This document shows, piece by piece, positions 5,575 through 46,083 of a stretch of 64,000 nucleotides of DNA (position 1 is the stretch's first letter; each line of letters opens with the position of its first letter). Both the position numbers and the translations under genes were made by a program. This DNA is from an uncultured delta proteobacterium (lineage in GTDB: Bacteria; Desulfobacterota; Desulfobacteria; Desulfobacterales; Desulfosalsimonadaceae): the NCBI GenBank assembly GCA_963826785.1, contig CAWGYD010000004.1:128001-192000 (forward strand), written 5' to 3'. The notes below the pieces were generated by a model. That model worked only from the letters and a program-made list of their open reading frames with translations. It ran no database searches and had not been told where the DNA came from.

Positions 5575-5616
5575 TCCCCTTCTAAACTTTTTAAAAGGGG
5601 GATTTAGGGGGATTTT
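5575..5616. repeat. Degenerate CCCC..AAAGGGGGATTTAGGGGGATTT palindromic element
   Basis: Similar to copies at 2547-2581 and 10229-10267. Confidence 0.65.
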
Positions 5617-5808
5617 CCCTCAGAATACACGACCCTTCCCCCGCCCCCCCCACCCTTCCCTTCTGCGAAAAAGGTCGCCCGTGCGCCCGCCGGGAATAAC
5701 CCGAGCAGGCCCTGCCCGCATTCGATTGCAAACCCATTGAAAAAAAGATCCGGATATCATAATGATTTTGATTTGGCATCGGTGATTGGAATGCAATCAG
5801 GAGGTTTG

Positions 5809-10049: not shown

Positions 10050-10140
10050 GTACACCCCCCTTGAGGGCACACCTTTAATTCCCCCCTCGAGGGGGGACCA
10101 AGGGGGGTGTACGGCCCGGCAAAAACAAAAAAATAAATTT
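10050..10140. repeat. Miniature TIR-bounded palindromic element (GTACACCCCCCTT...AAGGGGGGTGTAC) plus conserved right flank
   Basis: Perfect 13-bp inverted ends at 10050-10062 and 10100-10112; right arm recurs at 11904-11962 and 46021-46083. Confidence 0.8.
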
Positions 10141-10180
10141 GTTTTTCTGGTTATCCCGAAAAAACCAGTAATCGTTTTTC

Positions 10181-10267
10181 TCCCCCCTTTTGAAAAGGGG
10201 GGCGGGGGGGATTTCTCCCGGGAGGCGCCAAATCCCCCTAAATCCCCCTTTTCCAAAGGGGGACTTT
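10181..10267. repeat. Inverted doublet of CCCCCTTTT-nn-AAAGGGGG hairpins
   Basis: Two hairpins, each with an adjacent GGGGGATTT or AAATCCCCC tail, in opposite orientation. Confidence 0.75.
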
Positions 10268-11727: not shown

Positions 11728-11937
11728 GTACACCCCCCTTCGCCCCCCTCAAGGGGGGGCATTGAATTCGATCAATTCCCCCCTCAAGGGGGGACTTCTT
11801 TTTCTATCCCCCCTGCCGAGGGGAGACTCCATTTCTTATTCCCTCCTACCGAGGAAAGACTCTATTTTCTATTCCCACCTGCCGAGGGGAGACTTCTTTT
11901 TTTATTCCCCCCTGCGAGGGGGGATCAAGGGGGGTGT
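11728..11937. repeat. TIR-bounded element with six tandem 31-33-bp hairpin units
   Basis: Ends GTACACCCCCCT and AGGGGGGTGT; units start near 11742, 11775, 11806, 11838, 11871 and 11904. Confidence 0.85.
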
Positions 11938-12106
11938 TGGACCTGCGGATAACAAAAAATGAAGTCACTTAAATTAACCGGTTCGCCAAATCAAGTTCCT
12001 TAAAAGCCCAATTCCACCATACATCCAGCTATATATCCAGGCGGCAAAGAGGAGGGGACGGCGATGCGGCCACGAAGACAGGCTTGAATGCGATATGGAT
12101 ATGGAA

Positions 12107-15257: not shown

Positions 15258-18200
15258 GTTTCAATCCTTGTTCTTATGGATAGTTCCCGTCAATGCTATA
15301 CGGCGCTTCATCCTGGCGCCGGTAAGCTAGGGTTTCAATCCTTGTTCTTATGGATAGTTCCCGTCAATGATCGGCTATGCCGCCGTGTATATCGGTCGAA
15401 AATAGTTTCAATCCTTGTTCTTATGGATAGTTCCCGTCAATTGGCGCGACCTGCGGCCGCGGTCGATCTGCGGCTACAGTTTCAATCCTTGTTCTTATGG
15501 ATAGTTCCCGTCAATCCACTAGAGCCGACGGCCACCCGGACCGCCTGGTGTCGTTTCAATCCTTGTTCTTATGGATAGTTCCCGTCAATATGGCCAACTT
15601 CATCATCAAGCGGCGACTGGATGTGGTTTCAATCCTTGTTCTTATGGATAGTTCCCGTCAATAACCGGGCCGTCGATTTAATCGAACGAATACCTGCTGT
15701 TTCAATCCTTGTTCTTATGGATAGTTCCCGTCAATAAGTGCCCTGGAAGATCATGTGGTGGAATCCAATTGAGGTTTCAATCCTTGTTCTTATGGATAGT
15801 TCCCGTCAATAAGGATGCGATTTCTGACGGCCCACTCGGTGCCGTTCAATCTGTTCTTATGGATAGTTCCCCCCCCGATGGGTTTCAATCCTTGTTCTTA
15901 TGGATAGTTCCCGTCAATCTGCCTGCGGCTCGGGCTGCCGCGAGCTCTGATTTCAATCCTTGTTCTTATGGATAGTTCCCGTCAATGGCCGTGGAGCTGT
16001 TCGAACGCGATGTTTCAATCCTTGTTCTTATGGATAGTTCCCGTCAATGATCGGCTATGCTGCCGTGTACATGGTCGAAAATAGTTTCAATCCTTGTTCT
16101 TATGGATAGTTCCCGTCAATATGGCTCCACCTCCGGCCGGGTCATCTGCCGCTCCAGTTTCAATCCTTGTTCTTATGGATAGTTCCCGTCAATCGGATCG
16201 GCGGCCGCCCAGGAATGGCTGTTCTTTCAGTTTCAATCCTTGTTCTTATGGATAGTTCCCGTCAATGTCTTCCCGCTGCAGGTTTTCGATGGTCATCAGA
16301 TGTTTCAATCCTTGTTCTTATGGATAGTTCCCGTCAATAATACGCGGTCGAATACGCGGCCCCGAACCTGGCGTTTCAATCCTTGTTCTTATGGATAGTT
16401 CCCGTCAATATAAAATCTGGGCGGACATTTTTACCAGTTCGTCAGAGTTTCAATCCTTGTTCTTATGGATAGTTCCCGTCAATCCGGGAGTCACCCGTAC
16501 TGCAGATATTGACTGTTCCCGTTTCAATCCTTGTTCTTATGGATAGTTCCCGTCAATATGTCCAGAGTCCCAAAAGGGGCACTATCTGGATTGGGTTTCA
16601 ATCCTTGTTCTTATGGATAGTTCCCGTCAATCCGATCTGATGGCGGCTTACGGTGAACTGGTCATGGCGTTTCAATCCTTGTTCTTATGGATAGTTCCCG
16701 TCAATACGGCATGAACGCATCATACCATTATGCTGATGACAGTTTCAATCCTTGTTCTTATGGATAGTTCCCGTCAATTTTAATGCGCCTTTGGTTTTGA
16801 GTGCGCTTAAAAATGGTTTCAATCCTTGTTCTTATGGATAGTTCCCGTCAATTGTGGCAACCGGCTTGTGGCAGGCGTGGCAATTTATGTTTCAATCCTT
16901 GTTCTTATGGATAGTTCCCGTCAATTCGCATTGTCAAGCTGTGGGACAATCTCAGTACAGTTTCAATCCTTGTTCTTATGGATAGTTCCCGTCAATTTTT
17001 AACTTACTGATTATTGTTGTGTATTCAAAGGTTTCAATCCTTGTTCTTATGGATAGTTCCCGTCAATTGAATTTAACCGCTACATCGGCCCGCACCCGAT
17101 CCGGTTTCAATCCTTGTTCTTATGGATAGTTCCCGTCAATCTGGATGCCGGGGTGCTCTATTTCTTTTGTAAAATGTTTCAATCCTTGTTCTTATGGATA
17201 GTTCCCGTCAATGTGGCTCTGTGGCGATCTGACGCGGCCTTAAATTGGTTTCAATCCTTGTTCTTATGGATAGTTCCCGTCAATATGACACCCGCGGCAT
17301 CCTGCGTGCCGTCCACTGCGTGTTTCAATCCTTGTTCTTATGGATAGTTCCCGTCAATTTGCCGGTGGTTTGGCGCAGGCTGACGGTGGTGGAGTTTCAA
17401 TCCTTGTTCTTATGGATAGTTCCCGTCAATACCGTGGAGCCGGTAGGGGTCATTGGTGAGTGCCGGTTTCAATCCTTGTTCTTATGGATAGTTCCCGTCA
17501 ATCCGGTTTCAACCACAAGGAGGCGATATGCCAATTGATGTTTCAATCCTTGTTCTTATGGATAGTTCCCGTCAATTTCAATCCACTACTCGCTGTTTTC
17601 GCCACCGTTTGGTTTCAATCCTTGTTCTTATGGATAGTTCCCGTCAATGCGTGATGTTTCCGAACGATCCACCTGTTTTTCAATTGTTTCAATCCTTGTT
17701 CTTATGGATAGTTCCCGTCAATTCGAAGGTCTTCGTCTCCACAGGGCCGTACCCGGAGTTTCAATCCTTGTTCTTATGGATAGTTCCCGTCAATAAAAAC
17801 TCCAGATCGTGTGCATATTCCGCGATTGGTGTTTCAATCCTTGTTCTTATGGATAGTTCCCGTCAATACGGATTACGTTTACATTGACGAGTTGCAGAAA
17901 TGTTTCAATCCTTGTTCTTATGGATAGTTCCCGTCAATACCGATTTACCAGTATCAGCCGCATCCAGAACAACAGTTTCAATCCTTGTTCTTATGGATAG
18001 TTCCCGTCAATCCCATGTCCCGCCCATGCTCTCCCAAAACACCCCGGGTTTCAATCCTTGTTCTTATGGATAGTTCCCGTCAATGGTATATTCAATACCG
18101 CCAGCGGGGGCCACCACGCGTTTCAATCCTTGTTCTTATGGATAGTTCCCGTCAATCGGCCTCAACATCAAAATCGACGTCACCAAACTGGACAAGTTTC

Positions 18201-21200
18201 AATCCTTGTTCTTATGGATAGTTCCCGTCAATAAGTGCGACCAGGGCAGACTAAGGCAGATCGTAAGTTTCAATCCTTGTTCTTATGGATAGTTCCCGTC
18301 AATGCCGGTTTTGGGCCGACTGAAAAGCCGGTGCATGTGTTTCAATCCTTGTTCTTATGGATAGTTCCCGTCAATATCCAAAGGTGGTTCATCTCTGCCT
18401 CGCAGCCAGGTTTCAATCCTTGTTCTTATGGATAGTTCCCGTCAATATGGCGGCGAAAAAAGAGATAGCGATTCCTGACCAGTTTCAATCCTTGTTCTTA
18501 TGGATAGTTCCCGTCAATGACATGAGGCTTAAGTCATACACCCAATCCCCCGGTTGTTTCAATCCTTGTTCTTATGGATAGTTCCCGTCAATGATTGATG
18601 ACACCAAGGATGCGGACAGCGATACACCAGTTTCAATCCTTGTTCTTATGGATAGTTCCCGTCAATATTATGGCGGAGTGGTAAAATGTCGAATGAATTA
18701 CTGTTTCAATCCTTGTTCTTATGGATAGTTCCCGTCAATCAAGACACAGATTGATTCTGAGTTTGGGCTGAGGAGTTTCAATCCTTGTTCTTATGGATAG
18801 TTCCCGTCAATAATAGTCCAGGCATTGCGGGAACACGGATTATCCAAGTTTCAATCCTTGTTCTTATGGATAGTTCCCGTCAATGACCGGCTTTGGGTGC
18901 GGGAAACCCATGCGGATATGTTTCAATCCTTGTTCTTATGGATAGTTCCCGTCAATCTCGAACAAAGGAGCCCATTCGAGTCCATTAGTTTCAATCCTTG
19001 TTCTTATGGATAGTTCCCGTCAATCGGGCGGGCGCATACCGCTCACGTGCACGCGAGTTTCAATCCTTGTTCTTATGGATAGTTCCCGTCAATGAATTCT
19101 GCCGAGCATTCATGGCTAGTAAAAGTCGGGTTTCAATCCTTGTTCTTATGGATAGTTCCCGTCAATTCGTATTGGCACGTGCACAACCTTCTCAGTGTCA
19201 GTTTCAATCCTTGTTCTTATGGATAGTTCCCGTCAATTCATATGGCCGGTACTAGAATAGCGGCAATTTTAGTTTCAATCCTTGTTCTTATGGATAGTTC
19301 CCGTCAATTAGTGTAGAATTCCGTTCAGCTCCGGTGTTCAGTGTGGTTTCAATCCTTGTTCTTATGGATAGTTCCCGTCAATACGGACAGGTAAGGCCTG
19401 GGAGATCTGGACGACATTTATTGTTTCAATCCTTGTTCTTATGGATAGTTCCCGTCAATATGTCGGTGTTGGCGTAGTCATCGATATCTGGTTTCAATCC
19501 TTGTTCTTATGGATAGTTCCCGTCAATCCAATGTGGGCTATGTATAATGCGGCACCGTTGTTTCAATCCTTGTTCTTATGGATAGTTCCCGTCAATCGCC
19601 CAGGCACATTGATCACCAAGTCGAATACCGTGTTTCAATCCTTGTTCTTATGGATAGTTCCCGTCAATACTTAAGCACCGTCGCAGATGACGGCCTGTAT
19701 CATTGTTTCAATCCTTGTTCTTATGGATAGTTCCCGTCAATCAGGATTTCGGTTTCAATCCTTGTTCTTATGGATAGTTCCCGTCAATCACATTCCACCG
19801 TCTATGAAGCCGAACATTGTGTTTCAATCCTTGTTCTTATGGATAGTTCCCGTCAATGATACCGATTGCGATCTGAGGCGCAATGGGTTTCAATCCTTGT
19901 TCTTATGGATAGTTCCCGTCAATGCGGTTTCAGGACCACCAGCTCTGTTTCAATCCTTGTTCTTATGGATAGTTCCCGTCAATATGCGATGAACGATTGC
20001 CACGTGTTGCCACTCAACAGGTTTCAATCCTTGTTCTTATGGATAGTTCCCGTCAATCACAGACCGTGGAAGTGGCGGCGATCGCAAATCTACTGTTTCA
20101 ATCCTTGTTCTTATGGATAGTTCCCGTCAATAAACTGTCGGGCAACTAAGAATCCGGTATTGGAGTTTCAATCCTTGTTCTTATGGATAGTTCCCGTCAA
20201 TATAGTCACGCGTATGACCCATCACGGTAGTGCGCGACGTTTCAATCCTTGTTCTTATGGATAGTTCCCGTCAATTGGCGCGGTCCGTGAAATTCTATGT
20301 CGCGGCGTACATGAGTTTCAATCCTTGTTCTTATGGATAGTTCCCGTCAATATAATGTTTCAGGATAGTGTTTCAGCTCGATTGTGGTTTCAATCCTTGT
20401 TCTTATGGATAGTTCCCGTCAATCAACCGACTACCTGATATCAGCGGCCGCGTATAAGTTTCAATCCTTGTTCTTATGGATAGTTCCCGTCAATCATGGG
20501 CTTCATGCCGAGATGCCCGCATTGCAGTGACCGTGTTTCAATCCTTGTTCTTATGGATAGTTCCCGTCAATTGACGGAGGCGCCGAATCATTGCGCATAA
20601 TATGATGTTTCAATCCTTGTTCTTATGGATAGTTCCCGTCAATTAAGTTGCCATCTTAGTCTCGTTATCCGAATCAAGTTTCAATCCTTGTTCTTATGGA
20701 TAGTTCCCGTCAATCCAATGTCGCCAGCTCGATCGCACTTGGTTTCAATCCTTGTTCTTATGGATAGTTCCCGTCAATCCTTACCCTGTTTCGAGCAAGC
20801 TCCGTTTCCTGGTTTCAATCCTTGTTCTTATGGATAGTTCCCGTCAATGCCATCGATCGGAGATACCAGTCGGCACTACATCAATGTTTCAATCCTTGTT
20901 CTTATGGATAGTTCCCGTCAATAGCTGGCATCTGGGCTCGCAAATGGATCAACTTCATGGTTTCAATCCTTGTTCTTATGGATAGTTCCCGTCAATGATC
21001 ATCGGACATGGTCGACATGTGACTGGACATCGGGTTTCAATCCTTGTTCTTATGGATAGTTCCCGTCAATTGAATCTGACAGCCGCATCAACAGATCCGC
21101 ATCAACGGTTTCAATCCTTGTTCTTATGGATAGTTCCCGTCAATCGGGCTCGGCATGACTCCAGAGCTATGTCGCTACCATGTTTCAATCCTTGTTCTTA

Positions 21201-21651
21201 TGGATAGTTCCCGTCAATCTGAGAATCACGATGCGACGACTGCTGGAGGCATTCGGTTTCAATCCTTGTTCTTATGGATAGTTCCCGTCAATCCGTAATT
21301 CTGTGCCCATATGCCGTTCATTGGTGTTTCAATCCTTGTTCTTATGGATAGTTCCCGTCAATTCGATCGCGTCTGCCGGATGACATCAGCAGGTCAGTTT
21401 CAATCCTTGTTCTTATGGATAGTTCCCGTCAATCGGTGCGTCGGCAATTCACGGCGTCACCAGCACCGTGTTTCAATCCTTGTTCTTATGGATAGTTCCC
21501 GTCAATTTGATTGCATCGGCATGCAGAACTGTTATGCCATTCGGTTTCAATCCTTGTTCTTATGGATAGTTCCCGTCAATTAGTGAGACTGCCCAGTCAA
21601 TTGACCTCTTATATGTTTCAATCCTTGTTCTTATGGATAGTTCCCGTCAAT
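15258..21651 (-). CRISPR. CRISPR array, about 90 repeats and 89 spacers; repeat ATTGACGGGAACTATCCATAAGAACAAGGATTGAAAC (37 nt)
   Basis: Near-identical repeats, spacers mostly 34-37 nt; ATTGAAAC 3' end and an AT-rich leader at the high-coordinate end set the orientation. Confidence 0.99.
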
Positions 21652-21858
21652 CCTCCTTTCTGGAAATATGATTTTAAATCAAGTAGTTGAAAATATTTTG
21701 ATTCGTTTAGAATCATATCCGTGCTCCAATTTTCATTCAAAAAACCCAACTGAAAGGTACTTCAAAGTGGAAATAAATTTCTGATATTTCAGCTGATAGA
21801 GTTATTTATAGCTATTTTCGGTATATTTTTGCATCCCTAAGAAATAATGAAGAAGGGA
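21652..21858 (-). promoter_or_regulatory. CRISPR leader with IHF-consensus site at 21677-21689
   Basis: AT-rich non-coding stretch between cas4 and the first repeat; AATCAAGTAGTTG matches WATCAANNNNTTR. Confidence 0.8.
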
Positions 21859-22464
21859 TCAAATGGATTTTTCACACAGATTACCATAGCAGCAGTCCGC
21901 GCATCTTGCCTTGTACTTGGTCGGCGCCGGATAAATACCTTTTTGTACAACATCCAGCAACTGCCCGATCATTGTTTTAAGCTCATCAAAAATCCTTTCC
22001 GGAATCGGCACTTCCACCAATTTGTTGTTGCTGCGGGTGTAGACGATAAAACCCCGTTTCACAGCTATGCTGAAATTATCCTTGATCAATTGAGCATAGA
22101 AGGCAAGCTGAAACCGGTGATTTTTGAAGGTGCGCTCCTTGTATTCGGCATATTTATAATCGAGCGGGGCCGCGGTGCCGTCATCCAGAAAAAGGATTTC
22201 ATCGATGATCCCGCGGATGCCCATTCCGGAAGCAAGATGGACTGATTTTTCCCGCCGGATGCACCCAATCTTCTTCCTCAGGTAATCCGGGTTGAACCTT
22301 GCTTTGTCTTCGTGAACTGTCCGGCCCTTTGTCACCTTGAAGCGCTTTTCCTGGTGCTCGGGAATTTTCAGGTACAGCTCGAAATATGTAAAGCGCGGGC
22401 AGTAGAGGAACTCCAGCAGGTCGGTTGCGGTAACGCTTATTGCCGTGCTTTGATATTGCTCCAT
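21859..22464 (-). CDS. cas4: CRISPR-associated exonuclease Cas4
   Basis: YCPR, GIIDEI, PLDYK, QLAFYA, CADCCYGNLC Fe-S motif; alternative start 22488. Confidence 0.95.
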   Translation of the reverse strand: MEQYQSTAISVTATDLLEFLYCPRFTYFELYLKIPEHQEKRFKVTKGRTVHEDKARFNPDYLRKKIGCIRREKSVHLASGMGIRGIIDEILFLDDGTAAPLDYKYAEYKERTFKNHRFQLAFYAQLIKDNFSIAVKRGFIVYTRSNNKLVEVPIPERIFDELKTMIGQLLDVVQKGIYPAPTKYKARCADCCYGNLCEKSI

Positions 22465-22678
22465 ATCCAAATCGGTATCATTATCCATTTTAAAAGATGG
22501 AAGATGCAGTGCTGCTTTCCGCCGGACTACCATTTTCCAGAAGCCCAAGCTGCTCCGAGTATTCGGATGGCCCAGTTCGTAATCGAAAAAGCCGTCCCCC
22601 GGTACGTGCTCATGCTGCTCGAATTCGTACTCCAGCAGGAATTGATGTCATACCGAATTAACCGAGCAATAAAATGTA

Positions 22679-23203
22679 TCATCCATATCGCTTAATTTGC
22701 TCCTTTACTGTAAACCCGATCCCCTTTTTCGCTTTGTTTTCCGGATTCAACAACTGATCGAGCACCTGAAAAACCACCTGGAACCGCTCATCCGTTTGTT
22801 TCCGAAGTCCCTCTATTTCCTTCTTTAATTCCTCACTGACTGAAACCAGATGGCGAATGCGGGTAAAGGTTCGCATGATCTCTATATTGACCCGAATGGC
22901 TCGATCATTGTTGAGAACGCTGGAAAGCATGGCGACGCCCTGTTCTGTAAAGGCAAACGGTTTGTATCTTGCACCTCCCCAACTTGAGGTCACAATTTGT
23001 GACCTCAAGTTGGTAAATTCTTCTTTACTCATTTCAAACATGAAATCAGGGGGGAATCGATCAATATTGCGCCGGACCGCCTGTTTTAGGACCTTTGTCT
23101 CGACTCCGTACAATTCGGCAAGATCTCTGTCTAACATCACCCTAAGGCCACGTATGTGATAAATTTTTGATGCAACCGCGTCCGATGAAATCATATTCGG
23201 CAT
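22679..23203 (-). CDS. ORF6N domain putative DNA-binding protein
   Basis: IRGLRVMLDRDLAELYGVETKVLKQAVRRNIDRFPPDFMF, PFAFTEQGVAMLSSVL, C-terminal IGF; GGGAGG RBS before ATG 23203. Confidence 0.92.
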   Translation of the reverse strand: MPNMISSDAVASKIYHIRGLRVMLDRDLAELYGVETKVLKQAVRRNIDRFPPDFMFEMSKEEFTNLRSQIVTSSWGGARYKPFAFTEQGVAMLSSVLNNDRAIRVNIEIMRTFTRIRHLVSVSEELKKEIEGLRKQTDERFQVVFQVLDQLLNPENKAKKGIGFTVKEQIKRYG

Positions 23204-23226
23204 CTCAAACCTCCCAGCATGCTGGA

Positions 23227-23503
23227 TTAAATAAAAAACTTTGCCAGAATCTCTTCGTTTACCAGTTTCTTGTCGAATCCCTGGCCCAAGACCTTGATGC
23301 GCCGGAAATCCTCTTGGCAGAAGGGGAAGAGGTAGACGCTCGAAGACAAATTCAGATCTCCTTGATCTCCAGCCAATCGGGCCGCTTTTAACCGTATTCG
23401 GCCAGAAGTATATTGGCCAGCCGGTGGGCTTCGTGCTGGATGATGTGCCGGCGCTTGATGTTTTTCCGGCGGTACGCATCGATTCGTCGAAGTGTGCGTT
23501 CAT
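23227..23503 (-). pseudogene. Fused remnant of cas1 3' end and internally deleted cas2
   Basis: 23341-23503 aligns to 31190-31353 (1-nt deletion, in-frame TAA); 23233-23340 aligns to 30902-31009 with 7 substitutions. Confidence 0.92.
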
Positions 23504-24204
23504 GGGTTACTTGTAACTTCAGGTTTCTCGAATGGTTTAATCCATCCGAAGCCATGACTTACTGCATGGCCAATTGCAAATTCATCGGGAAGGATTGCAT
23601 TTGTGGCGAATCTGCCCAGGACGCCGGTCAGTTGTTGTCCTTTATAATTGCAAGTGACAGTCCTTCTTTCCGTAAAAGTGGCATATAGTCTTTCAGGAAA
23701 AATGATATTCAGTCCTTTCAAAGAAGTGAGGATCTGCGCCCGAAGCAGTCTGTCTTCCTCGTATAGCTTGTCCGTAAACTTCATCGGCTTATACTTGGCG
23801 TAATTTTTCTGATTGAACAAAAGAACAGGGGTCGCCAGGCGATAATGTAAAAGCCTTTCCGAAATGCCGAACTCGGCGGATGCGGGCTTCAGGAATATAT
23901 CTGTGGGGCGAACCTCATTGCCGTTTATCGAGATGTTCAGATCAAGCCAGGGGAGTTGAAGGATTTTTTGTGCCGATTCCATCCAGCCGAGAACGAGCCC
24001 GTTGTTATTCCGCCATTGATACTGAACCCTGGGGTATCGATAGATGAAAGCGCCGCTTGGATCATGCTGATGAAATTCGTTATCCGGAAAGGCATTGAGT
24101 ATTCCACCCCGGAGTTGGGCGGCAAGGGTCTGCCTGAATCCTTTAATCGAACTGTCAAAAACAAGTTCCACTACCGTTTTAGGGCGCTTTTCTAAAATGT
24201 GCAT
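23500..24204 (-). CDS. cas6: CRISPR-associated endoribonuclease Cas6 (Cas6b-like)
   Basis: FHQH...YRYPRVQYQ N-terminus; C-terminal G-loop IGHAVSHGFG. Confidence 0.85.
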   Translation of the reverse strand: MHILEKRPKTVVELVFDSSIKGFRQTLAAQLRGGILNAFPDNEFHQHDPSGAFIYRYPRVQYQWRNNNGLVLGWMESAQKILQLPWLDLNISINGNEVRPTDIFLKPASAEFGISERLLHYRLATPVLLFNQKNYAKYKPMKFTDKLYEEDRLLRAQILTSLKGLNIIFPERLYATFTERRTVTCNYKGQQLTGVLGRFATNAILPDEFAIGHAVSHGFGWIKPFEKPEVTSNP

Positions 24205-26558
24205 GTGGATTCCTTTTCCGGGAGTTTCAAAAATCCGGTTTCTTTTGAGTAATACTCTTCAGAATCAAGAAGTATGACGGGATCGCGTTCCGGATCTTTC
24301 CCGGCATAAACCTGGATAACTCTTTCATAGAACTTGTGCCGGATTTTTCGGAATTGCTTTTTCTTTTCAAGAGCGTCGAGATCACTGTTGCATATCTCCC
24401 GGTATTGTTCCCAGATAGCCTGGTCTGCCGGATTCCGATTTACAAAGCAGGTTACCTGGGGCGGGCCTTCCTCGATAAGTTGGAATTGTTTTTCAAGCTC
24501 GGGAAAATTTCCTTCCAGCCAGTATGTTTCAAGATTGACCTGGTCGATGCGCCCCCAGCAGTTTTCAAAATAAATCCGGCTGAGCCGAAGAAAATCTTTT
24601 TCCTCAAATTCCAGGGTCGTACCGGAGGATATTTCTGAAAGGCCAAGGGCATCGATGGTAGCGTCAATAAGCGGCACATCGTAGATTTTGGACCATAATG
24701 GCGCCTTCAATTCACCGTTTTCATCTTCCTTGTACAGTTTCCAGATGTGCACTTCGCCGGGCGTGCCGCCGTCATGACGATTGGATCGACCGCAGCTCTG
24801 GATGATCGAATCAAGGGGCGCGATTTCCCGATGAACTACAGGAAAGCTGAAATCGACGCCGGCCTCGACCAGTTGGGTGGAAACCACTATGCAGGGAATG
24901 TTGCGTTTCAGATATTTTTGAACAAGTCGGATCCGGGCGCGGCGGTCCCATGGGGTGAGGTTTGTTGACAGCATGATGATCCGGGAATCCGGGAATGCTT
25001 CTTTCAATTTGTCAAATATGTTCTTCACCGATGCCCGGCGATTGAGAATAATCAGGGTGGAACTGAATTCTTCTTTCAAATCCGCAATAATCCGGCCACA
25101 AAATGTGGGAAGACTCAGTTTTTCGGTATGGCAGAAAAGCGACACCCGGGAGAGTTTATGGAAATAGCCCGGATGTTTGGTGAGCAATTCTTTTATATCG
25201 GGATCATCATGTCTGAAAATCAACGGCCGCGTGGCTGTCAGCAAAACGAATGTCATATTCAGGGCAGCCGCGGCCTCACCAAAAATATGGCGGATGGTTT
25301 TCCAGTAACGAAGCGGAACGGCCTGGACTTCGTCCATCAGTACGATGCTGCCGCATAATTGTCCCGCTCGCTTGAGTTCCGAGTTGCTTGCGGAAATCAG
25401 GCTGTGAAGGAACTGGTAAAAGGTCGTGATCACAATTTCACTCTGCCAGCTTTCCGTCAGGAGCGCGCCGGCTTCCTCCGCATCGAATTCGGCTACTTTT
25501 CCCCGGTAAAGTCCCGGCACCAGATGATGATGTTTCAACAGTACGTCTTCACGGTTTCCCAATCCGCAAAGCCTCATGACATCCGCCATGACCTTGTGAT
25601 TCTGGTCGATTACCGAGGTGAACGGGAGACAATAAATGATTCGTGGCGGTCTCTTCCGGTTTTTTGAAATGTTTTTCCGGGCATTCAAAGCGGCGTTGAA
25701 TATAGCCAGGGTCTTGCCCGAACCCGTAGGGGCGGTGAGCGTAAAAAGCCGGTGCTCCGGATTTGTCGCCCATTGATCATTCACTTCACCGGAAATGGCT
25801 TCCCGCAGATGGTCCATATTAGAATCCGGCTGCCCGAATTTCTCCGCTTTGTATCTTCCTACCATATCAGCCGGAATTTCGGGCCGGTTCAGGACATAGC
25901 CGATGGCTGAATCGATTTTATCCGCAGACAGAAGGGCGCCGTATCCCACCAGAAAGCCAAGGACGCCCGGCGTCTTCATTTCCGGAAAACAGCGGCGGAT
26001 CTGTGACATCCGGATCTTGCCGAAACTCTCTTGAATGGCCGCGACTGTGAAGTCCTGGTGGTTTAATACCGGCAGGTCTTTGCTATGAAAATAACGGGAA
26101 AGGCCCGGGGCGACCCATGCGAGTATATTTTCAATATCAAGACTTTGGAGTTGCAGGGGCAGGGTATCGTCGGATTTAATACGCTGGCGGATATTGCCGT
26201 AGGCATTTTCCCAGGAGTCGAATCCCAAGTTTCCATGATGCCGCAAAACGGCAATAAGGATGCTCAGCCTTTTCCACAGGGGCAGATCCAGATATTCGGT
26301 AATCTTCCACCCGATACAGGCGCTGCATTCGGAATGGCTTGTAAACCGGTTCCTTTTTTTCTTCTGAAGCCGGTCAACCTGGAAATAAGGAGTGGATTTG
26401 CCGATATCGTGGAACAGGCCGGATAAAAATGCGATCTGCCTTAAGTCTTCGCCGGCTTCGAAAGCTGCGGCTTCCGCCGATTCGGCGACCCGGAGAAGAT
26501 GCCCGGAAAGCGGATCATTTTCGTGCGCCAGACATTCATAGAAAGGAAACAATTTCAT
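24192..26558 (-). CDS. cas3: Cas3 HD nuclease-helicase
   Basis: HDIGK, HHG, APTGSGKT, DEVQ, TAT, STQLVEAGVD, QSCGRSNR. Confidence 0.97.
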   Translation of the reverse strand: MKLFPFYECLAHENDPLSGHLLRVAESAEAAAFEAGEDLRQIAFLSGLFHDIGKSTPYFQVDRLQKKKRNRFTSHSECSACIGWKITEYLDLPLWKRLSILIAVLRHHGNLGFDSWENAYGNIRQRIKSDDTLPLQLQSLDIENILAWVAPGLSRYFHSKDLPVLNHQDFTVAAIQESFGKIRMSQIRRCFPEMKTPGVLGFLVGYGALLSADKIDSAIGYVLNRPEIPADMVGRYKAEKFGQPDSNMDHLREAISGEVNDQWATNPEHRLFTLTAPTGSGKTLAIFNAALNARKNISKNRKRPPRIIYCLPFTSVIDQNHKVMADVMRLCGLGNREDVLLKHHHLVPGLYRGKVAEFDAEEAGALLTESWQSEIVITTFYQFLHSLISASNSELKRAGQLCGSIVLMDEVQAVPLRYWKTIRHIFGEAAAALNMTFVLLTATRPLIFRHDDPDIKELLTKHPGYFHKLSRVSLFCHTEKLSLPTFCGRIIADLKEEFSSTLIILNRRASVKNIFDKLKEAFPDSRIIMLSTNLTPWDRRARIRLVQKYLKRNIPCIVVSTQLVEAGVDFSFPVVHREIAPLDSIIQSCGRSNRHDGGTPGEVHIWKLYKEDENGELKAPLWSKIYDVPLIDATIDALGLSEISSGTTLEFEEKDFLRLSRIYFENCWGRIDQVNLETYWLEGNFPELEKQFQLIEEGPPQVTCFVNRNPADQAIWEQYREICNSDLDALEKKKQFRKIRHKFYERVIQVYAGKDPERDPVILLDSEEYYSKETGFLKLPEKESTCTF

Positions 26559-27255
26559 CGTCTACCCGGTAAATTTCTGATCCTTTCGAAATTTGACATT
26601 CAATCGGGCCGGCATCCTCGGCCAGGAGGATCTCCTGGTAACGGTGGACAATACGATCGCCGTCCATCACCGCCGGAATCCGGGTCCGGTGATACCGCCG
26701 GTCGGCTTCATATACGGGAGTAACCCCTTCTCTCAGGGAGATCACCGAATCCGTTTTTGCCGTACCCTCGGGCATTATGTGCGCGGCCGCTTCGCCAACC
26801 CAGTTGATATCCGCCAGGCATTGGGCAAGGCCAAGTACCGGTGTGTAAACAGATCGTTGGTCCTCAAGTAGATTCTTCAGCGGGTCATGCATATCGGCCG
26901 GCAATCCGCCGATAAATACCCGGAACGCCGGCTCTTTTAAAAATTCGTAATTGACCTGAATATGGGTATTGGTATGGGCGCGCGGCCGCAGATATTTGTC
27001 GGTGCCGTCCTTGGTGTTGAGAAGATTGATCGCCGCACGGAAGATCCGCACGGGGGCAAGCAGCCGAATGCCGATTTTGATTTTTTCCCAACACAGTTTT
27101 TCATGATATTCCGTTTTCGACAAGCCCAGGACAGCGCCCAGAATTCCCAGCACAGCCGGCGGCGGCGGAAGCGGGAATGTCACCGGGCTCATGGGTGAAT
27201 ATGGTTTTTTGAAATGTCCATATTCTCCGTGGATATCAAAAACCAGGATTTTCAT
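26536..27255 (-). CDS. cas5: Type I-B Cas5
   Basis: VFDIHGEYGHFKKPY...PPPPAVLGILGAVLG; YTPVLG. Confidence 0.93.
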   Translation of the reverse strand: MKILVFDIHGEYGHFKKPYSPMSPVTFPLPPPPAVLGILGAVLGLSKTEYHEKLCWEKIKIGIRLLAPVRIFRAAINLLNTKDGTDKYLRPRAHTNTHIQVNYEFLKEPAFRVFIGGLPADMHDPLKNLLEDQRSVYTPVLGLAQCLADINWVGEAAAHIMPEGTAKTDSVISLREGVTPVYEADRRYHRTRIPAVMDGDRIVHRYQEILLAEDAGPIECQISKGSEIYRVDDEIVSFL

Positions 27256-27258
27256 TAT

Positions 27259-28245
27259 TTATATCTCCAGGTTTTCAGCGGCGATATCCCTTGCCTTGAG
27301 CAGGTCGATTGCGGCCGCCTCCCGTTGTACGTCCTTGAGGCGGAGCCTTGAATTCTGGCGGACCCGGACGGAAACCACTTTGTCGTTTTGTTTGAAGGCA
27401 TCGAGCAACTGCGATAGATCAATGCAGAATTGATTCGAATCCCGGATACTTGTTTCTTCTTCAGGCTGATCCGTCATCTTGATCCTGCGATGTAGTGCAC
27501 CGATTTTGTACCCCTTCCGGTTTTCAATCACCATCAGCAGCATGGGATCATGCCCCATTTTCGAATGGGTGTTGAGCTCGGCGGTGCCGCGCCAAAGGGC
27601 ATCCAGCATCTGATTCAGATCTTCTTCGGACATTCCGGTAGTGCGGGCGGCGTTTTCGTTGGCAACCCCATAGACGCCGATAAGGGCGTAGGGGAGAAGC
27701 CACCGTTCGGCAAACGATTTCTGCGATGCCGAAGCCGAGCCGGCGAAAGCGGCGGTCTGCTGCACCATTTGCGGCGAAACGCGATGCAGGCTGCGGTTAA
27801 ACGGCATAAACTGGACCGGACCCGTCACTTTCAGGGAAGCCTCATTTTTGCCCATGGGAAGGGCACACCCGAACAGACGGGCATCAATGCATTTTTTCAT
27901 GATGATGTCCTGAAGTGCATTCAACTTTTCAAGCCCTTTTTTCCCTTTTACGGCTTCATCAATGAAGCTTTCCGCCCGGTCCTTTCCCTGGGATAAAAAA
28001 CCGTCCGGCTTGAAAGTATCTCGGATCAGAATCTCTGTGCCATTGGCGATCCTTTTTTCCACGTCCGGTTCGCTCGCCAGGAAAAAGTCCCGGACCGTCC
28101 GCTTGATCCGGACATCGGTCACCGTCGCTTCGCCGGTTTCCGGGTCCGTGCGGGGCCGGTTTTCATCAAGAGGATCACCATTGGGATTACAGTCCTTGGC
28201 CTCATAAAGAAACAGCATTTCATAACGATTTTCAATTGGACCCAT
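27259..28245 (-). CDS. cas7: Type I-B Cas7 (Csh2-like)
   Basis: NPNGDPLDENRPR, TDVRIKRTVRD, DARLFG, TGPVQF; GGAGG RBS before ATG 28245. Confidence 0.95.
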   Translation of the reverse strand: MGPIENRYEMLFLYEAKDCNPNGDPLDENRPRTDPETGEATVTDVRIKRTVRDFFLASEPDVEKRIANGTEILIRDTFKPDGFLSQGKDRAESFIDEAVKGKKGLEKLNALQDIIMKKCIDARLFGCALPMGKNEASLKVTGPVQFMPFNRSLHRVSPQMVQQTAAFAGSASASQKSFAERWLLPYALIGVYGVANENAARTTGMSEEDLNQMLDALWRGTAELNTHSKMGHDPMLLMVIENRKGYKIGALHRRIKMTDQPEEETSIRDSNQFCIDLSQLLDAFKQNDKVVSVRVRQNSRLRLKDVQREAAAIDLLKARDIAAENLEI

Positions 28246-28687
28246 TGTCTTCCGCCTCCTCGACATATTCAGAGATTTCTGCCAGTTCCTTGTTGCCGGA
28301 AAGCGCCCTGATCCTGCCTTCCAGGCTGTAGCCGATCGTGAATGCAAAAGTGGCTTCTTCGTTCGTGATTTTCCAGGTTTCCCCGCACCTTACCCATGCC
28401 TGGGCCAGGTCCGGATCCATGGTTTTCGCAACCAGACCCAGGGCCTCATACTGCGCCAGTTTGTCATGACCTTCCCGGTAGAGCCGTTTCAGATGATCCC
28501 GCGGCAGAAGCCGCCCTACAAACTTCTTGGCAAACGGCGTGGTTTTTCGCTTTCCATATTGAACGCTGGTGACAACAGACATGTAGCATCCTGTCAGAAA
28601 AGCAACGACTTTTTCCGGCTGGTCAAAAAATTCCGGGTGCTCAAGGATATACTGCCCATAGGGGCTTGCAGGGACTGCACCTTCCAT
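28232..28687 (-). CDS. cas11: Internally translated small subunit Cas11 (151 aa), in frame within cas8b
   Basis: AAAAGGAG 5 nt upstream of an in-frame ATG preceding the helical FF...KVVAFLTG domain. Confidence 0.7.
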   Translation of the reverse strand: MEGAVPASPYGQYILEHPEFFDQPEKVVAFLTGCYMSVVTSVQYGKRKTTPFAKKFVGRLLPRDHLKRLYREGHDKLAQYEALGLVAKTMDPDLAQAWVRCGETWKITNEEATFAFTIGYSLEGRIRALSGNKELAEISEYVEEAEDNGSN

Positions 28688-30034
28688 GGGAACTCCTTTT
28701 CTGTTCGGGATTATGAGTTGCGTAAGGCATGCATAGCGGTAAAAAGCCCATGCCTGGCGCAGTGTCCAATTGAGCATGGAACTTTCTTTTTTGCCGACGG
28801 AGATGATTCGGTTGACCAGGTGATGCAGAAATTGGTTGTACCTGATCTGTTTATGTTCAAACAGGGCGACAAGCCATGCGCGGAAAACTTCTTCGCTCTT
28901 GCTTTCGGATGCTTCCGAAAAATTGTGGATCAGCCTGGCATTGATTTCGATCGGCTTTTCCGCCCCATTTTTATCGATAGAGGTCAGGTCATCCGCCGAC
29001 TTGATTTTCCTGCCGGCATTATAAATGGCTTTCATCCGGCTGGGCAGGACCTGCTGAACTTCCGCCTGAATTCGCCAGGCGGCATTTTCCTGTTTGAAAA
29101 AAATCAGGGCAAAAGCCATTTGATCGGAATGGCCGGTAAAATCTTCTAAAAAGTTCTCTTCCTGTGCGATCAGGTCAAACTGCTTGCTGTTTCCCAGCTT
29201 GAACCGCCCCGGGTTGGTGGTCAGCAGGTGTTTCATCTCTTCCCGGACTTCTTCGGAATTACTGTAGGGGAGGATCATATAGCTCTGGCCGGCCATGGTG
29301 CCGGTCAGATCATCCCCAATGCGGATCACCGCGCCTGAAATTTTTATGGCGCATTCCTCGCATACCGGGAAGTTTTTAACTCCGTCCACCTCTTTGAATC
29401 CCCCGGCAATGCTACCGATCTTATCGAGATTGTAGCAGGCCAGGAGTGAATAATTGCCGAAAACAAGTTTGTCTTTTCGACCGCAGACAAAACATGTGCC
29501 TTGCGCCCTGATGCCGCCTCGCGTTTTCCAATTGGCCAGAACCGATTGCTGCATGTGGCGTTTGCAGGATTCCCATTTATAAACCGGCAGGACATTGCCA
29601 TTTGAATTCTTCGCCCAGAACACATACCCGCGATGTTCTTTTCCATCAATTCCAGAGTCTTTGGATTGTGCCTCGACTTCAGCCCAGATGGATTTCAGGT
29701 TTTGGGAATAATCGATGACGGTGACATCCAGCCATTTTTTTTCCTCGGGAGTCAGTTCGCCGGATTCCAGGAGATTTTTCACAGCTTTCAGGAGCCGGTT
29801 GTCGGTGGTTTTCGCCTGCTTGCAGCAGGGGGTATAATCGGTCCCGTTCGAAGGGCCTGAACGATAAATTACATCTTCCCTTTTATGCAGAACCTTGACG
29901 GAATCGAATCGTCCGGTTTCATCAAAGCAGATGGCAAGCCCCCGATCATAAATTTCCGGCATTCCTTCGTTCAGGTATTCGATCAATTCCGAATCCGGCA
30001 GGAGTTTACTGTACTCGGAAAGTTTCTGGAACAT
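28232..30034 (-). CDS. cas8b: Type I-B large subunit Cas8b (TM1802/Csh1-like)
   Basis: CFVCG...YNLDKIGSIAGGF...NFPVCEEC zinc motif; position before cas7. Confidence 0.88.
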   Translation of the reverse strand: MFQKLSEYSKLLPDSELIEYLNEGMPEIYDRGLAICFDETGRFDSVKVLHKREDVIYRSGPSNGTDYTPCCKQAKTTDNRLLKAVKNLLESGELTPEEKKWLDVTVIDYSQNLKSIWAEVEAQSKDSGIDGKEHRGYVFWAKNSNGNVLPVYKWESCKRHMQQSVLANWKTRGGIRAQGTCFVCGRKDKLVFGNYSLLACYNLDKIGSIAGGFKEVDGVKNFPVCEECAIKISGAVIRIGDDLTGTMAGQSYMILPYSNSEEVREEMKHLLTTNPGRFKLGNSKQFDLIAQEENFLEDFTGHSDQMAFALIFFKQENAAWRIQAEVQQVLPSRMKAIYNAGRKIKSADDLTSIDKNGAEKPIEINARLIHNFSEASESKSEEVFRAWLVALFEHKQIRYNQFLHHLVNRIISVGKKESSMLNWTLRQAWAFYRYACLTQLIIPNRKGVPMEGAVPASPYGQYILEHPEFFDQPEKVVAFLTGCYMSVVTSVQYGKRKTTPFAKKFVGRLLPRDHLKRLYREGHDKLAQYEALGLVAKTMDPDLAQAWVRCGETWKITNEEATFAFTIGYSLEGRIRALSGNKELAEISEYVEEAEDNGSN

Positions 30035-30056
30035 GTGGTTTTCCTTTATTGTTCCC

Positions 30057-30467
30057 TTACAGATTGATTATCTGGGCATTTAATTTATCAAAATCCCGGT
30101 CAAAAGAAACAACCGGATGGGTGGGAGAAGAACAGGCATACAAAAGGCAATCCACGAAATCGATGCCATGCTTTTCGTACGCCAGCAGGGCGTTGATCAA
30201 TATAGCCTTGTTTGAATTGACAATGCCGTTGAAGCTGATGACCCGATTCAGCCGGTCCACGATTTCCCCGCGTGGAATCTTATAAAAACTTTCCATGACG
30301 TAAATGCATTCCAGCAGGACAGCATCAAGGATCTTGGCTTTTTTTCTGGAATGCGAAACTTCGATCATGAACCGGGTGGCTCTGGGACTGAATTCAGGAT
30401 GATCATCCAGTAGATAGCGGAGAATGACATTGGTATCGATCAAATGGATTGTTTCGTGAGAATTCAC
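30057..30467 (-). CDS. vapC: PIN-domain VapC-family toxin
   Basis: IDTNVILRYL, E in VLLECIYV, DFVDCL, SFDRDF. Confidence 0.9.
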   Translation of the reverse strand: MNSHETIHLIDTNVILRYLLDDHPEFSPRATRFMIEVSHSRKKAKILDAVLLECIYVMESFYKIPRGEIVDRLNRVISFNGIVNSNKAILINALLAYEKHGIDFVDCLLYACSSPTHPVVSFDRDFDKLNAQIINL

Positions 30468-30485
30468 TCGAAGATGCCTGCTTGT

Positions 30486-30752
30486 CTATGATTTTCGCTC
30501 ATGTTCATTATTAATTTCCCAGGCAATCTCCTCCTGGATTTTCCCCCTGATCTTATCCAGCGGCTCGTATTTTTTGGCGTAGGCCTTCAGACTGCCGGCC
30601 AAGCTTTCCGCTGTTCCGGCGGGCACGCCCTTGAGTTTAACTTCCCCGTTTTCCACCACAAACAATACCGAGCCGTCTTTACTGATATTCAGCTGCTTCC
30701 GGATTTGCTTAGGGATGGTCACCTGTCCTTTTTTAGAGACCTTTGCGTACAT
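30486..30752 (-). CDS. AbrB/MazE/SpoVT-family antitoxin
   Basis: AKVSKKGQVTIPKQIRKQLNI swapped-hairpin signature; directly upstream of the PIN gene. Confidence 0.92.
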   Translation of the reverse strand: MYAKVSKKGQVTIPKQIRKQLNISKDGSVLFVVENGEVKLKGVPAGTAESLAGSLKAYAKKYEPLDKIRGKIQEEIAWEINNEHERKS

Positions 30753-30809
30753 TTGGTTTTGTCCATATTATAGTGAATATCCTTTATTTTTATTTTTTTC
30801 TTTACAATT

Positions 30810-30840
30810 ACAATATTTCATTCATTTTGGAATTTGTCAA
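30810..30840 (-). promoter_or_regulatory. Putative sigma70 promoter of the abrB-vapC-cas8b operon
   Basis: Minus-strand TTGACA at 30840-30835 followed after 17-19 nt by an AT-rich -10-like AATATTGT. Confidence 0.55.
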
Positions 30841-30861
30841 ACCTCATGTATTGCATCAGGC

Positions 30862-30898
30862 AGTAATTGGAGGTCACAAATTGTGACCTCCAATTACT
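30862..30898. promoter_or_regulatory. Perfect 18-bp-arm palindrome, candidate operator or hairpin
   Basis: AGTAATTGGAGGTCACAA-A-TTGTGACCTCCAATTACT abutting the cas2 stop; 21-bp core shared with 22979-23013. Confidence 0.7.
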
Positions 30899-31198
30899 TC
30901 AAAAAAACTTTGCCAGGATCTCCTCGTTCACCAGCTTCTTGTCGAATCCCTGGCCCAGGACCTTGATGCGCCGGAAATCCTCCTGGCAGAAGGGGAAGAG
31001 ATAGACGCTGTCCTCTTCCTCGTCGATGATCTCCCGGCAGATTTCGCCCAGTTCATCGAACCGGCTGCTTTCAAGCCGGCCCAGAAATACGCTCTTCTGG
31101 ACCCGGACGAGGCCGGCCTTCTTGCAGGCCTTGGCCACCTTGTTCCGCTTCTTGTTTTCCACAATATCGTAGATGATCCAGGTCAGAATCGAAGACAC
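30899..31198 (-). CDS. cas2: Cas2
   Basis: IIYDI, RVQKSVFLG, DSVYLFP; GTG start behind AAGGAG. Confidence 0.95.
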   Translation of the reverse strand: MSSILTWIIYDIVENKKRNKVAKACKKAGLVRVQKSVFLGRLESSRFDELGEICREIIDEEEDSVYLFPFCQEDFRRIKVLGQGFDKKLVNEEILAKFF

Positions 31199-31200
31199 AC

Positions 31201-32220
31201 TCAGATCTCCTTGATTTCCAGCCAATCGGGCCGATTTTTGCCGTCTTCGGCCAGAAGTATGTTGGCCAGCCGGTGGGCTTCGTGCTGGATGATGTGACGG
31301 CGCTTGATGTTTTTTTTGCGGTAGCGCACCGACTCATCCAGGTGCGTGTTCATGGCCTCCACCACCACGGGTTTGCCGTTCTGGTTTAAGCTGACCGCCT
31401 GCTCGCCGGCCTCGAAATAATCATCCTTCATCCGGCGGCCGGTGAACAGGTACACGCCGGTCTGCTCGGCAAAGATGCGGAAGGGTTCGATCAGGTCGAA
31501 CACCAAAGACTTCTTGTTGTAGTTGTCCGTGTGCAGAAAGCCCACATAGGGGTCGAGGCCGGAGAGGATGCAGGCTTTTTCCACCAGGCTGTAGAGGATG
31601 CCATAGCAATAGTTGAGCACCGCGTTGAAAGGGTCTTTGGCCGGCTGGCGGGAGCGGCCGGAGAAGCGGTATTTTTCCGGCAGCAGCTGTGAAATGCACT
31701 GAAAGTAGGCCCGGCCGGCGGCCCCCTCGATTCCCATCAGCCGGTTGCGGATGTTCTCTTCCGTGTCTGCCGTAAGCTCCGCCAGATTTTCAAGCGCCTT
31801 GGCGATTGCGGCCAGCGGCTTTTCAAACTGCGGCTCCTTTCCGGGGCGGGCATACATCAGCTTCTTGAGATACTGGCCCTGGTTGTCGAATTTCTGCCGG
31901 ATCATGTCCGTGACCAGCTTGAGGCCGGTTTCCCCGTGCACCGCCGCGTCGAGCTGCCGTCGCCGGATCAGGGCCGTGCTGCCGGTTTTGGAAAACCAGA
32001 CCCGGCCCACCGGATCGCCATACCCGTCCAAAAAGACGATGTCGATGTTGTGCTCCAGCGCCAGGACCACCGCCTGGGTGGAGAGCATGGCCTTGTTGGT
32101 GAGGATGATGGACTCGACCTTCAAGGGGGATATGTCGAACCGCTTCTCCTCATGCTTGAGGCGGAATATCCCGTCTTTCTGGGTGATCAGGGTGCCGGGG
32201 GTGTTGATGACCAACTGCAT
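31201..32220 (-). CDS. cas1: Cas1
   Basis: LMGIEGAAGRAYF, DPFNAVLNYCYG, GLDPYVGFLH, LVFDLIEPFR. Confidence 0.98.
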   Translation of the reverse strand: MQLVINTPGTLITQKDGIFRLKHEEKRFDISPLKVESIILTNKAMLSTQAVVLALEHNIDIVFLDGYGDPVGRVWFSKTGSTALIRRRQLDAAVHGETGLKLVTDMIRQKFDNQGQYLKKLMYARPGKEPQFEKPLAAIAKALENLAELTADTEENIRNRLMGIEGAAGRAYFQCISQLLPEKYRFSGRSRQPAKDPFNAVLNYCYGILYSLVEKACILSGLDPYVGFLHTDNYNKKSLVFDLIEPFRIFAEQTGVYLFTGRRMKDDYFEAGEQAVSLNQNGKPVVVEAMNTHLDESVRYRKKNIKRRHIIQHEAHRLANILLAEDGKNRPDWLEIKEI

Positions 32221-40467: not shown

Positions 40468-40782
40468 ACACCCCCCTAACCCCCCTCGAGGGGGGAATTT
40501 TTTGGGGGTCGCCCATGCCGGCATTCCTCCTCGAGAGGGGTACTTTTTGTGGAGAGCCCGTAGCTGAATCCCTTCTCGAGGGGGGATTCTTTTGGGGGCA
40601 ACCCATGCCGGAATCTCTCTTTAAGAGGAAAATCTTTTTCGGATAACCCATGCCTGAATCCCCCCTTGAGAGGGATAGCTTTTGCGGAGAGCCCGTAGCT
40701 GAATCCTCCCCTGAGCGGGGTGCCTTTTATGGAAAACCCATACCTGAATCCCCCCTTGAGGGGGGAATTAAAGGGGGGTGTA
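40468..40782. repeat. TIR-bounded element with seven hairpin units at 45-bp period
   Basis: Units start at 40521, 40566, 40611, 40656, 40701 and 40746 (first unit near 40478); ends ACACCCCCCT and AGGGGGGTGT. Confidence 0.88.
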
Positions 40783-45872: not shown

Positions 45873-46020
45873 GGTCGCCTCCCTGTTTTTATTTGTCTAT
45901 AGATCAGGTTAACCCCGGATCTGATAATTGACAATCCACAATTGACATTGGCCATTCACAATTGGGGTTAAATGGCTAATGATTGTCTATTTTGATGAGC
46001 CGGTAAAAGCATTCTACTTT

Positions 46021-46083
46021 TATTCCCCCCTGCGAGGGGGACCAAGGGGGGTGTACGGCCCTGCGAAAACAAAAAATGAAATT
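46021..46083 (+). repeat. Solo right arm of the ACACCCCCCT element family
   Basis: Near-identical to 10078-10140 and similar to 11903-11962. Confidence 0.75.

Follow-up and report, generated by a model that had tools for sequence, protein, structure and literature searches.

Csa3 and WYL-domain proteins are dedicated regulators of cas loci. In phage defense, the abortive-infection protein BstA is paired with a DNA element, aba (Owen et al. 2021, PMC8585504), which the main text of that paper describes as 63 bp long, with direct CCCGCC repeats, and located at the gene start. PDC-S05 is a single-gene phage defense candidate nominated by guilt-by-embedding (Payne et al., 10.1101/2024.01.29.577857), and one member is reported, in a further study, to cut T7 and T5 plating about 1000-fold (10.1101/2024.09.26.614923). 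Here, we analyze a 64,000-nucleotide stretch of DNA from an uncultured delta proteobacterium (contig CAWGYD010000004.1, positions 128,001 to 192,000; referred to below as the window). It contains a type I-B cas locus, with its CRISPR array, in which one gene encodes a protein with an ORF6N domain. This gene carries a palindrome in its coding sequence (palindrome 1), and a second copy lies near a promoter-like site before abrB (palindrome 2). The original prediction proposed the ORF6N protein as a candidate dedicated CRISPR regulator and the palindromes as its binding sites. From comparisons across the ORF6N family, we consider it likely that both palindromes are cognate ORF6N sites, that ORF6N is a self-binding PDC-S05 defense passenger in a I-B cas lineage, and that the second site was orphaned when a gene moved.

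Palindrome and predicted recognition helix in the ORF6N family

Both palindromes are perfect, as first described, and palindrome 1 has a 1-nt center. The window has just three perfect palindromes whose arms reach 15 bp or more, and these are two of them. Their shared core occurs twice in the 4.43-Mb genome (88% complete), even with one mismatch allowed, in line with the earlier remark that the window has no third copy, and this low copy number does not fit a repetitive extragenic palindromic (REP)-type repeat, which would have many intergenic copies. A family weight matrix run on the same genome scores palindromes 1 and 2 at 40.3 and 33.8 bits, and the next best place at 17.2. Palindrome 1 is in frame in the ORF6N gene, whose product matches the whole PF10543 model (E 1e-36; 125 bits against a curated cut-off of 27.8).

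Among 203 distinct ORF6N genes collected from genome, metagenome, and viral loci, 188 are symmetric in at least 10 of 12 base pairs at the position of palindrome 1. With synonymous codons resampled, the expectation is 0.45%; in a different stretch of these genes, 1 of 200 attains 10 pairs. Pairing is found in 175 to 200 of the 203 genes at offsets 2 to 13 from the center (182 at offset 13), in 108 at offsets 14 to 15, and in 30 to 46 beyond (46 at offset 16). Such a sharp fall past offset 13 is what a site of set length would give, here 27 bp, and its center is less strict. The gene is common in the order, being present in 99 of 251 sampled genomes.

The bases of this site track two residues of the predicted recognition helix, numbered here from the ATG at 23194 (171 aa). 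For these counts, 197 genes were used, as six of the 203 with a symmetry under 8 were dropped. At residue 38, Gln occurs with A/A at bases +/-4 (129/131), Glu with G/G (24/24), and Arg or Lys with C/C (36/40). At residue 34, Lys occurs with G/G at bases +/-7 (115/116), and Arg with A/A in 38 genes, A/G in 16, and G/G in 8. On a tree built without the helix and site columns, independent pairs agree in 9 of 9 cases for Glu38, for Arg/Lys38, and for Arg34 (p 0.004). The usual major-groove pairings are Gln with adenine, Arg or Lys with guanine, and Glu with cytosine.

Three further tests bear on whether the DNA or the peptide is conserved. A purely synonymous base, with the opposite arm unchanged, is A in 1 of 114 K34 genes versus 12 of 19 R34 genes, and other Arg and Lys codons show no matching synonymous bias. 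A subfamily that reads the site in frame +1 (VTNCD/VANCD) follows the same code, with A for Q38 in 11 of 12 genes and G for E38 in 7 of 8; these counts include several near copies and were taken after 11 of 262 rows under the score cut-off were dropped. When viral contigs were searched for the site first, the in-gene Q-type matches encoded K34/Q38 in 12 of 12 cases (many of them near copies) and the in-gene E-type matches encoded E38 in 3 of 3. By the synonymous, frame-shift, and site-first tests, the conserved entity at the coding palindrome is DNA, not peptide. Protein-protein covariation behind the link between helix and site was considered and is ruled out by the first two of these tests. 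Helix residues 34 and 38 therefore most likely read bases +/-7 and +/-4, as judged from covariation. The window protein has K34 and Q38, so both window palindromes are cognate by this code, and binding of ORF6N within its own coding sequence, as originally expected, appears probable on family-wide, covariation-based grounds.

We also weighed an explanation without binding, in which replication template switching at a hairpin makes the symmetry and palindrome 2 is a neutral ORF6N leftover. Template switching is described in PMC5941160 as perfecting inverted repeats in proteobacteria. In the most similar locus, G003, a pair of neighboring changes takes the coding palindrome to 20-bp arms and turns a Thr into Pro, and palindrome 2 and the upstream site of G438 have over-long 18-bp arms, marks that inverted-repeat correction leaves; some extra sites lie in clear remnants of sister ORF6N genes (G191, G243). 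Template switching cannot explain, however, how site bases come to follow a residue of a helix encoded about 30 codons off, why a synonymous base in one arm does so, or why the pattern holds in two reading frames. We therefore regard this explanation as very improbable, and template switching as probably a supplier of paired mutations, not of selection. The unlike but perfectly symmetric outer arms of the two copies had been taken as a sign of selection; template switching accounts for the arms themselves, but not for the helix code.

For the ORF6N protein, AlphaFold2 predicts (mean predicted local distance difference test score 77.6) a winged-helix-like domain, one helix of the model spanning residues 33 to 42 and a long one 97 to 133. 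Over residues of about 4 to 115, its fold matches are Dachshund (1l8r; Z 6.5, root mean square deviation [rmsd] 2.8 over 82 residues), pSK1 Par (8csh; Z 5.0, rmsd 2.1 over 53), and Mbp1/APSES (1bm8; Z 4.4, rmsd 3.4 over 78). The likeness to these winged-helix domains is one of fold only, which says nothing about function. Searched against PDB sequences, the family profile had no match better than E 0.03, and Foldseek gave no match at E up to 0.001. The homodimer prediction scored 0.29, against a mark of 0.42. Most likely, the 27-bp site is occupied by a pair of ORF6N monomers. The in-gene site would let ORF6N sit on its own gene, and may thereby limit or sequester the protein.

Domain and family membership place the protein near known phage-related groups. 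With the phage anti-repressor families (PHROG 4792) it shares the ORF6N domain. Titles and abstract openings of the ORF6N-domain literature yielded neither a link to cas nor a binding site, and a literature search for the site found no paper on it, within a coverage that mostly excludes subscription papers. Three PADLOC models of PDC-S05 match the protein, the best as a full-length match with E 8e-60 over 160 residues (positions 6 to 174 of 177). Like PDC-S05, the gene is embedded in a multigene defense system, here between cas6 and cas4 and in kin inside cas operons.

Table 1. Coordinates of features in the window
Feature	Position	Strand	Remarks
CRISPR array, 90 repeats	15258..21652	.	
cas4	21859..22548	-	downstream of ORF6N
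ORF6N gene	22679..23203	-	174 aa from ATG 23203; winged-helix domain and long C-terminal helix; PADLOC PDC-S05 match
Palindrome 1	22979..23013	.	27-bp ORF6N-family site in ORF6N coding sequence; arms reach 17 bp; center 22996; encodes NLRSQIVTSS
Predicted recognition helix codons, residues 33-42 (K34, Q38)	23069..23098	-	residue identity tracks site bases +/-7 and +/-4
Decayed duplicate: cas1 3' end, cas2 start, cas2 3' end	23233..23500	-	directly upstream of ORF6N
Type I-B interference genes cas8b, cas7, cas5, cas3, cas6	23500..30034	-	
abrB/MazE-type antitoxin (30486-30752) and PIN/VapC (30057-30467)	30057..30752	-	passenger recurring after cas2 in the lineage
Sigma-70-like promoter match TTGACA-17-AATATT	30812..30840	-	upstream of abrB; consensus match only
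Palindrome 2	30862..30898	.	second site copy; 18-bp arms; center 30880; directly after cas2 stop
Intact cas1 (31201-32220) and cas2 (ends 30899)	30899..32220	-	domain scan

On the minus strand, the order is cas1-cas2-palindrome 2-promoter-like site-abrB-vapC-cas8b-cas7-cas5-cas3-cas6-ORF6N-cas4-array. The spacers match nothing in the own genome outside the array over more than 17 to 21 nt. Two spacers, at window positions 15369 and 16049, are 92% identical over 36 nt and were probably taken up against variants of one target.

Other palindromes are also present. A family of REP-like intergenic palindromic repeats with G/C runs is scattered through the window at 2544-2580, 5587-5619, 10073-10266, 11728-11966, 40748-40781, and 46013-46083. 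Elsewhere in the own genome, tRNA-like sequence precedes a related palindrome, with two mismatches per core, at C2 3240-3264 and 4342-4366; the two copies are inverted and almost identical, possibly a fold-back duplication or an assembly artifact. Perfect intergenic palindromes with 16-bp arms and A/T-rich centers at C6 234373-234405 and C10 213189-213221 do not match the ORF6N matrix and are possibly sites of related families.

Origin of the intergenic site

Palindrome 2 lies close to the promoter-like site: its center is 40 bp from the start of the abrB -35 box, and its end is 21 bp from the TTGACA. The original prediction saw in it an operator of the promoter serving the toxin-antitoxin pair and Cascade. 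Related loci point elsewhere. G293 has an intact cas1-cas2-site-ORF6N arrangement; G026, G438, and L145 have cas remnants followed by the site and ORF6N, and G002 a cas1 stub followed by both. G003 reads cas1-cas2-site-ORF6N (internally deleted)-abrB-vapC-cas8b, with a TTGACA box that overlaps the ORF6N stop codon. In these kin, the site center lies 63 to 127 bp before the ORF6N match, that is, upstream of ORF6N and not of abrB, and of the 9 loci in which abrB follows cas2, 7 lack a site at that junction. Across the family, free sites likewise cluster 39 to 166 bp upstream of ORF6N starts, with 24 of 173 eligible loci carrying one within 400 bp.

Across six genomes, identity is 95% over the 19 bp of the intergenic core but 27% over the 30 bp that follow downstream, which argues that the intergenic site was kept by selection as the upstream site of ORF6N. 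A neutral leftover, as the template-switching explanation would have it, cannot account for this difference. The alternative raised at the outset, that the second copy is a relic of another ORF6N gene, holds in that the copy is ORF6N-derived but is incomplete as a plain relic, given the conserved core. A role as the cas2 terminator found no support: the hairpin is stable (-29 kcal/mol, z -5.6), but a consensus scan for a hairpin with a U-tract gave no terminator-like site in 30600-31000. This comparison of loci assigns the second palindrome to ORF6N rather than abrB; the palindrome is not a conserved abrB/Cascade operator.

A decayed duplicate of cas1 and cas2 pieces, which the original prediction had overlooked while describing the palindromes themselves correctly, directly precedes the ORF6N gene. 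At 23233-23474 it is 91 to 94% identical to the intact copies at 30902-31009 and 31189-31323, and the upstream palindrome is absent from it. The ancestral cassette would have been cas1-cas2-site-ORF6N-abrB promoter, an arrangement seen in kin. A duplication or a move over 7.7 kb may then have carried ORF6N and the cas1/cas2 tail to the cas6-cas4 junction, with loss of the gene from its place behind the site. The upstream site would have stayed after cas2, its nearness to the promoter being a by-product of the rearrangement. Relocation of ORF6N that left the site behind is the simplest history suggested by these arrangements.

The same arrangements bear on whether ORF6N is a dedicated, or recently exapted, CRISPR regulator that acts at palindrome 2 on the abrB-vapC-Cascade promoter or on read-through from cas1-cas2. 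Palindrome 2 fits the ORF6N code, and ORF6N lies downstream of that promoter in the operon, so a feedback loop is physically possible. Both genomes in which ORF6N before abrB has been mostly lost keep a site close to the -35 box, the distances of 40 and 72 bp differing by about three helical turns, and G243 retains a gene-less site between cas2 and cas6. Against this, the site is near the abrB promoter in only 2 of 9 cas2-abrB loci and at unequal spacing, the abrB-vapC pair of G002 has no site, and the site center in the window, about 75 bp upstream of the predicted start, is clear of the promoter boxes. We consider a regulator of this kind unlikely. If, as we favor, palindrome 2 is an orphaned ORF6N site, ORF6N can probably still bind it near the abrB promoter; a resulting change in Cascade expression, if there is one, would be a secondary effect.

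Could the palindrome instead serve recombination or mobility, so that ORF6N cassettes move or are reshuffled through it? Several sites resemble left/right hybrids of two subtypes (G026, G293), ORF6N often lies beside duplicated gene tails (of cas2 in G054 and here, of cas6 in G376), and the deletion junction in G003 falls a few bases beyond a palindrome arm. But the genome has two copies only, the palindrome is not where the duplicated tails end, no recombinase or transposase was found among 20 open reading frames (ORFs) scanned in and around the locus, and ORF6N has no catalytic domain by Pfam. This possibility appears very improbable to us.

Several features of the related loci are recorded here in their own right. 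Remnants of cas2 in the lineage repeatedly keep about the last 35 codons, with differing junctions (window 23233-23340; L105 9176-9283; L102 10909-11013; L145 684-791; L299 8576-8683; L107 4114-4182), and a promoter or some other cis element may lie in the 3' end of cas2. The duplicated tails of neighboring cas2 or cas6 genes that adjoin ORF6N (L105 8619-9283; L277 10212-12490; L283 8000-8260) suggest insertion by duplication or by integration of a small circle. Two genomes have an ORF of 126 to 136 aa between cas1 and cas2 (L107 2055-2462 and L288 9799-10176, both on the minus strand), which we take to resemble a four-helix-bundle family protein. A different cas locus of G002 has two other long palindromes between cas7 and cas1 (L114, 2773 and 3174).

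ORF6N genes in cas loci

A cas or array signal accompanies close relatives of the ORF6N protein at 4 of 80 loci from genomes and 2 of 81 from metagenomes or viruses, by a test that used the Cas proteins of this locus and a simple repeat scan and could thus miss other CRISPR types. Each set owes one of these loci to the cassette of this lineage, and for two the signal is a run of three repeats and nothing more. The family is not confined to cas loci, and the idea of a regulator dedicated to CRISPR is not supported by this distribution. A tree of 48 ORF6N rows has 7 changes of the cas label, at least 5 of them forced by well-supported branches.

Within the I-B lineage, the association is real. 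An ORF6N gene, remnant, or site is present in 11 of 26 loci chosen by cas2 similarity (66 to 84% identity) from an order sample of 401 genomes, versus about 0.07 expected from the genome-wide density. This enrichment would also suit a regulator, but the other 15 loci, some of them on short contigs, have neither gene nor site, and the operon position of ORF6N varies (after cas2, after cas6, after vapC, before cas1). Among more distant or broken cas2 loci, 0 of 7 have a gene, remnant, or site. Junctions occupied by ORF6N also hold other passengers, such as abrB-vapC. This is the pattern of an embedded accessory passenger gene that, as far as gene arrangement tells, is enriched in one I-B cas lineage.

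The window locus resembles those of Csa3 and WYL regulators in having a small DNA-binding gene inside a cas locus and a palindrome near a cas promoter. It differs from them in that a domain scan found no CARF, WYL, or other sensor domain in the ORF6N protein, in that a conserved promoter operator is lacking, and in that the family is found mostly away from cas loci.

Several observations weigh against our preferred reading of ORF6N as a self-binding defense passenger with an orphaned second site. The tree-aware version of the synonymous test rests on only 5 independent pairs (p 0.06), and two near-identical frame +1 genes with K38, under the score cut-off, carry G/G contrary to the code. Free sites agree with the code of the neighboring ORF6N in 26 of 45 cases versus 24.6 when permuted, no better than chance (the window's own extra site was left out), and the upstream site of G002 does not fit the adjacent K38 protein. 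The fold matches are middling even at best, with 4 to 10% identity. The lineage loci are kin and not independent, so 11 of 26 overstates the number of events. Finally, the PDC-S05 member that blocked phages is annotated as Virulence_RhuM, not ORF6N, in the passages concerned (10.1101/2024.09.26.614923; PMC12881386), which set out neither a palindrome nor a mechanism.

Free sites on phages and comparison with BstA/aba

Viral contigs also carry the site apart from any ORF6N gene. No ORF6N gene lies within 700 bp of 12 of 25 Q-type core matches and 7 of 10 E-type matches; free single copies of the site on viral contigs lie at 701-721 of L345, L347-L352, L356, L357, L360, L367, L370-L372, L374, and L376-L378. 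A whole-record search of 15 of the 19 free-site records found no PF10543 in 14 and a gene about 700 bp away in one. Four of the ORF6N-free phage records are at least 90% complete (299, 363, 176, and 158 kb). The five records tested have one site copy each; in the five searched for related domains, RhuM and Bro-N were absent, and KilA-N occurred in one, about 105 kb from the site. Several free viral sites are intergenic with A and T runs on both sides, like bidirectional terminators. Permuted-arm palindromes of the same composition had no match in the viral contigs, although three such controls are few; a further control pattern, also with 0 matches, was not counted, as it resembles the family's R/K-type site. 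The junction of a cas2 end with the site was not found in the viral contigs.

Free copies on phages that lack ORF6N suggest, by analogy, an aba-like decoy, and some of them could instead reflect lost genes or related binders. Taking these observations together, we tentatively raise a broader possibility, for which the evidence is suggestive at most. ORF6N/PDC-S05 may be a very widespread anti-phage module whose reading frame includes the site that restrains it; protein and site would codiversify under a simple recognition code. Large phages without ORF6N would carry a single free copy as an aba-like decoy or immunity element. In the I-B lineage, the module would have been embedded repeatedly in cas loci as a back-up, and the orphaned site may couple it to Cascade expression.

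A residue-to-base code that spans phyla and two reading frames offers a testable mechanism for the large, uncharacterized ORF6N family and for PDC-S05. The defined site also makes testable an open question about BstA and aba, namely, how a DNA element silences a KilA-N-like defense protein. The window locus contributes its embedding in a cas lineage, the history of an orphaned site, and the synonymous and frame-shift tests. The CRISPR side is more modest: a defense passenger enriched in one I-B lineage, not a demonstrated regulator.

BstA has a KilA-N-like DNA-binding domain, and the winged-helix fold matches of ORF6N (Z 4 to 6.5) include Mbp1, without a Pfam KilA-N match. The strings "palindrom" and "ORF6" do not occur in the main text on BstA and aba (PMC8585504). 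Both systems have a short cognate element that overlaps with the gene of its protein and varies from one variant to another, as judged for ORF6N by covariation and for aba, which works in trans, from that main text. BstA, as described there, is a larger, two-domain prophage protein. Whereas aba is a 63-bp element at the gene start, the ORF6N site is a 27-bp dyad in mid-gene that follows a residue-to-base code and, in the window, lies in a chromosomal cas operon.

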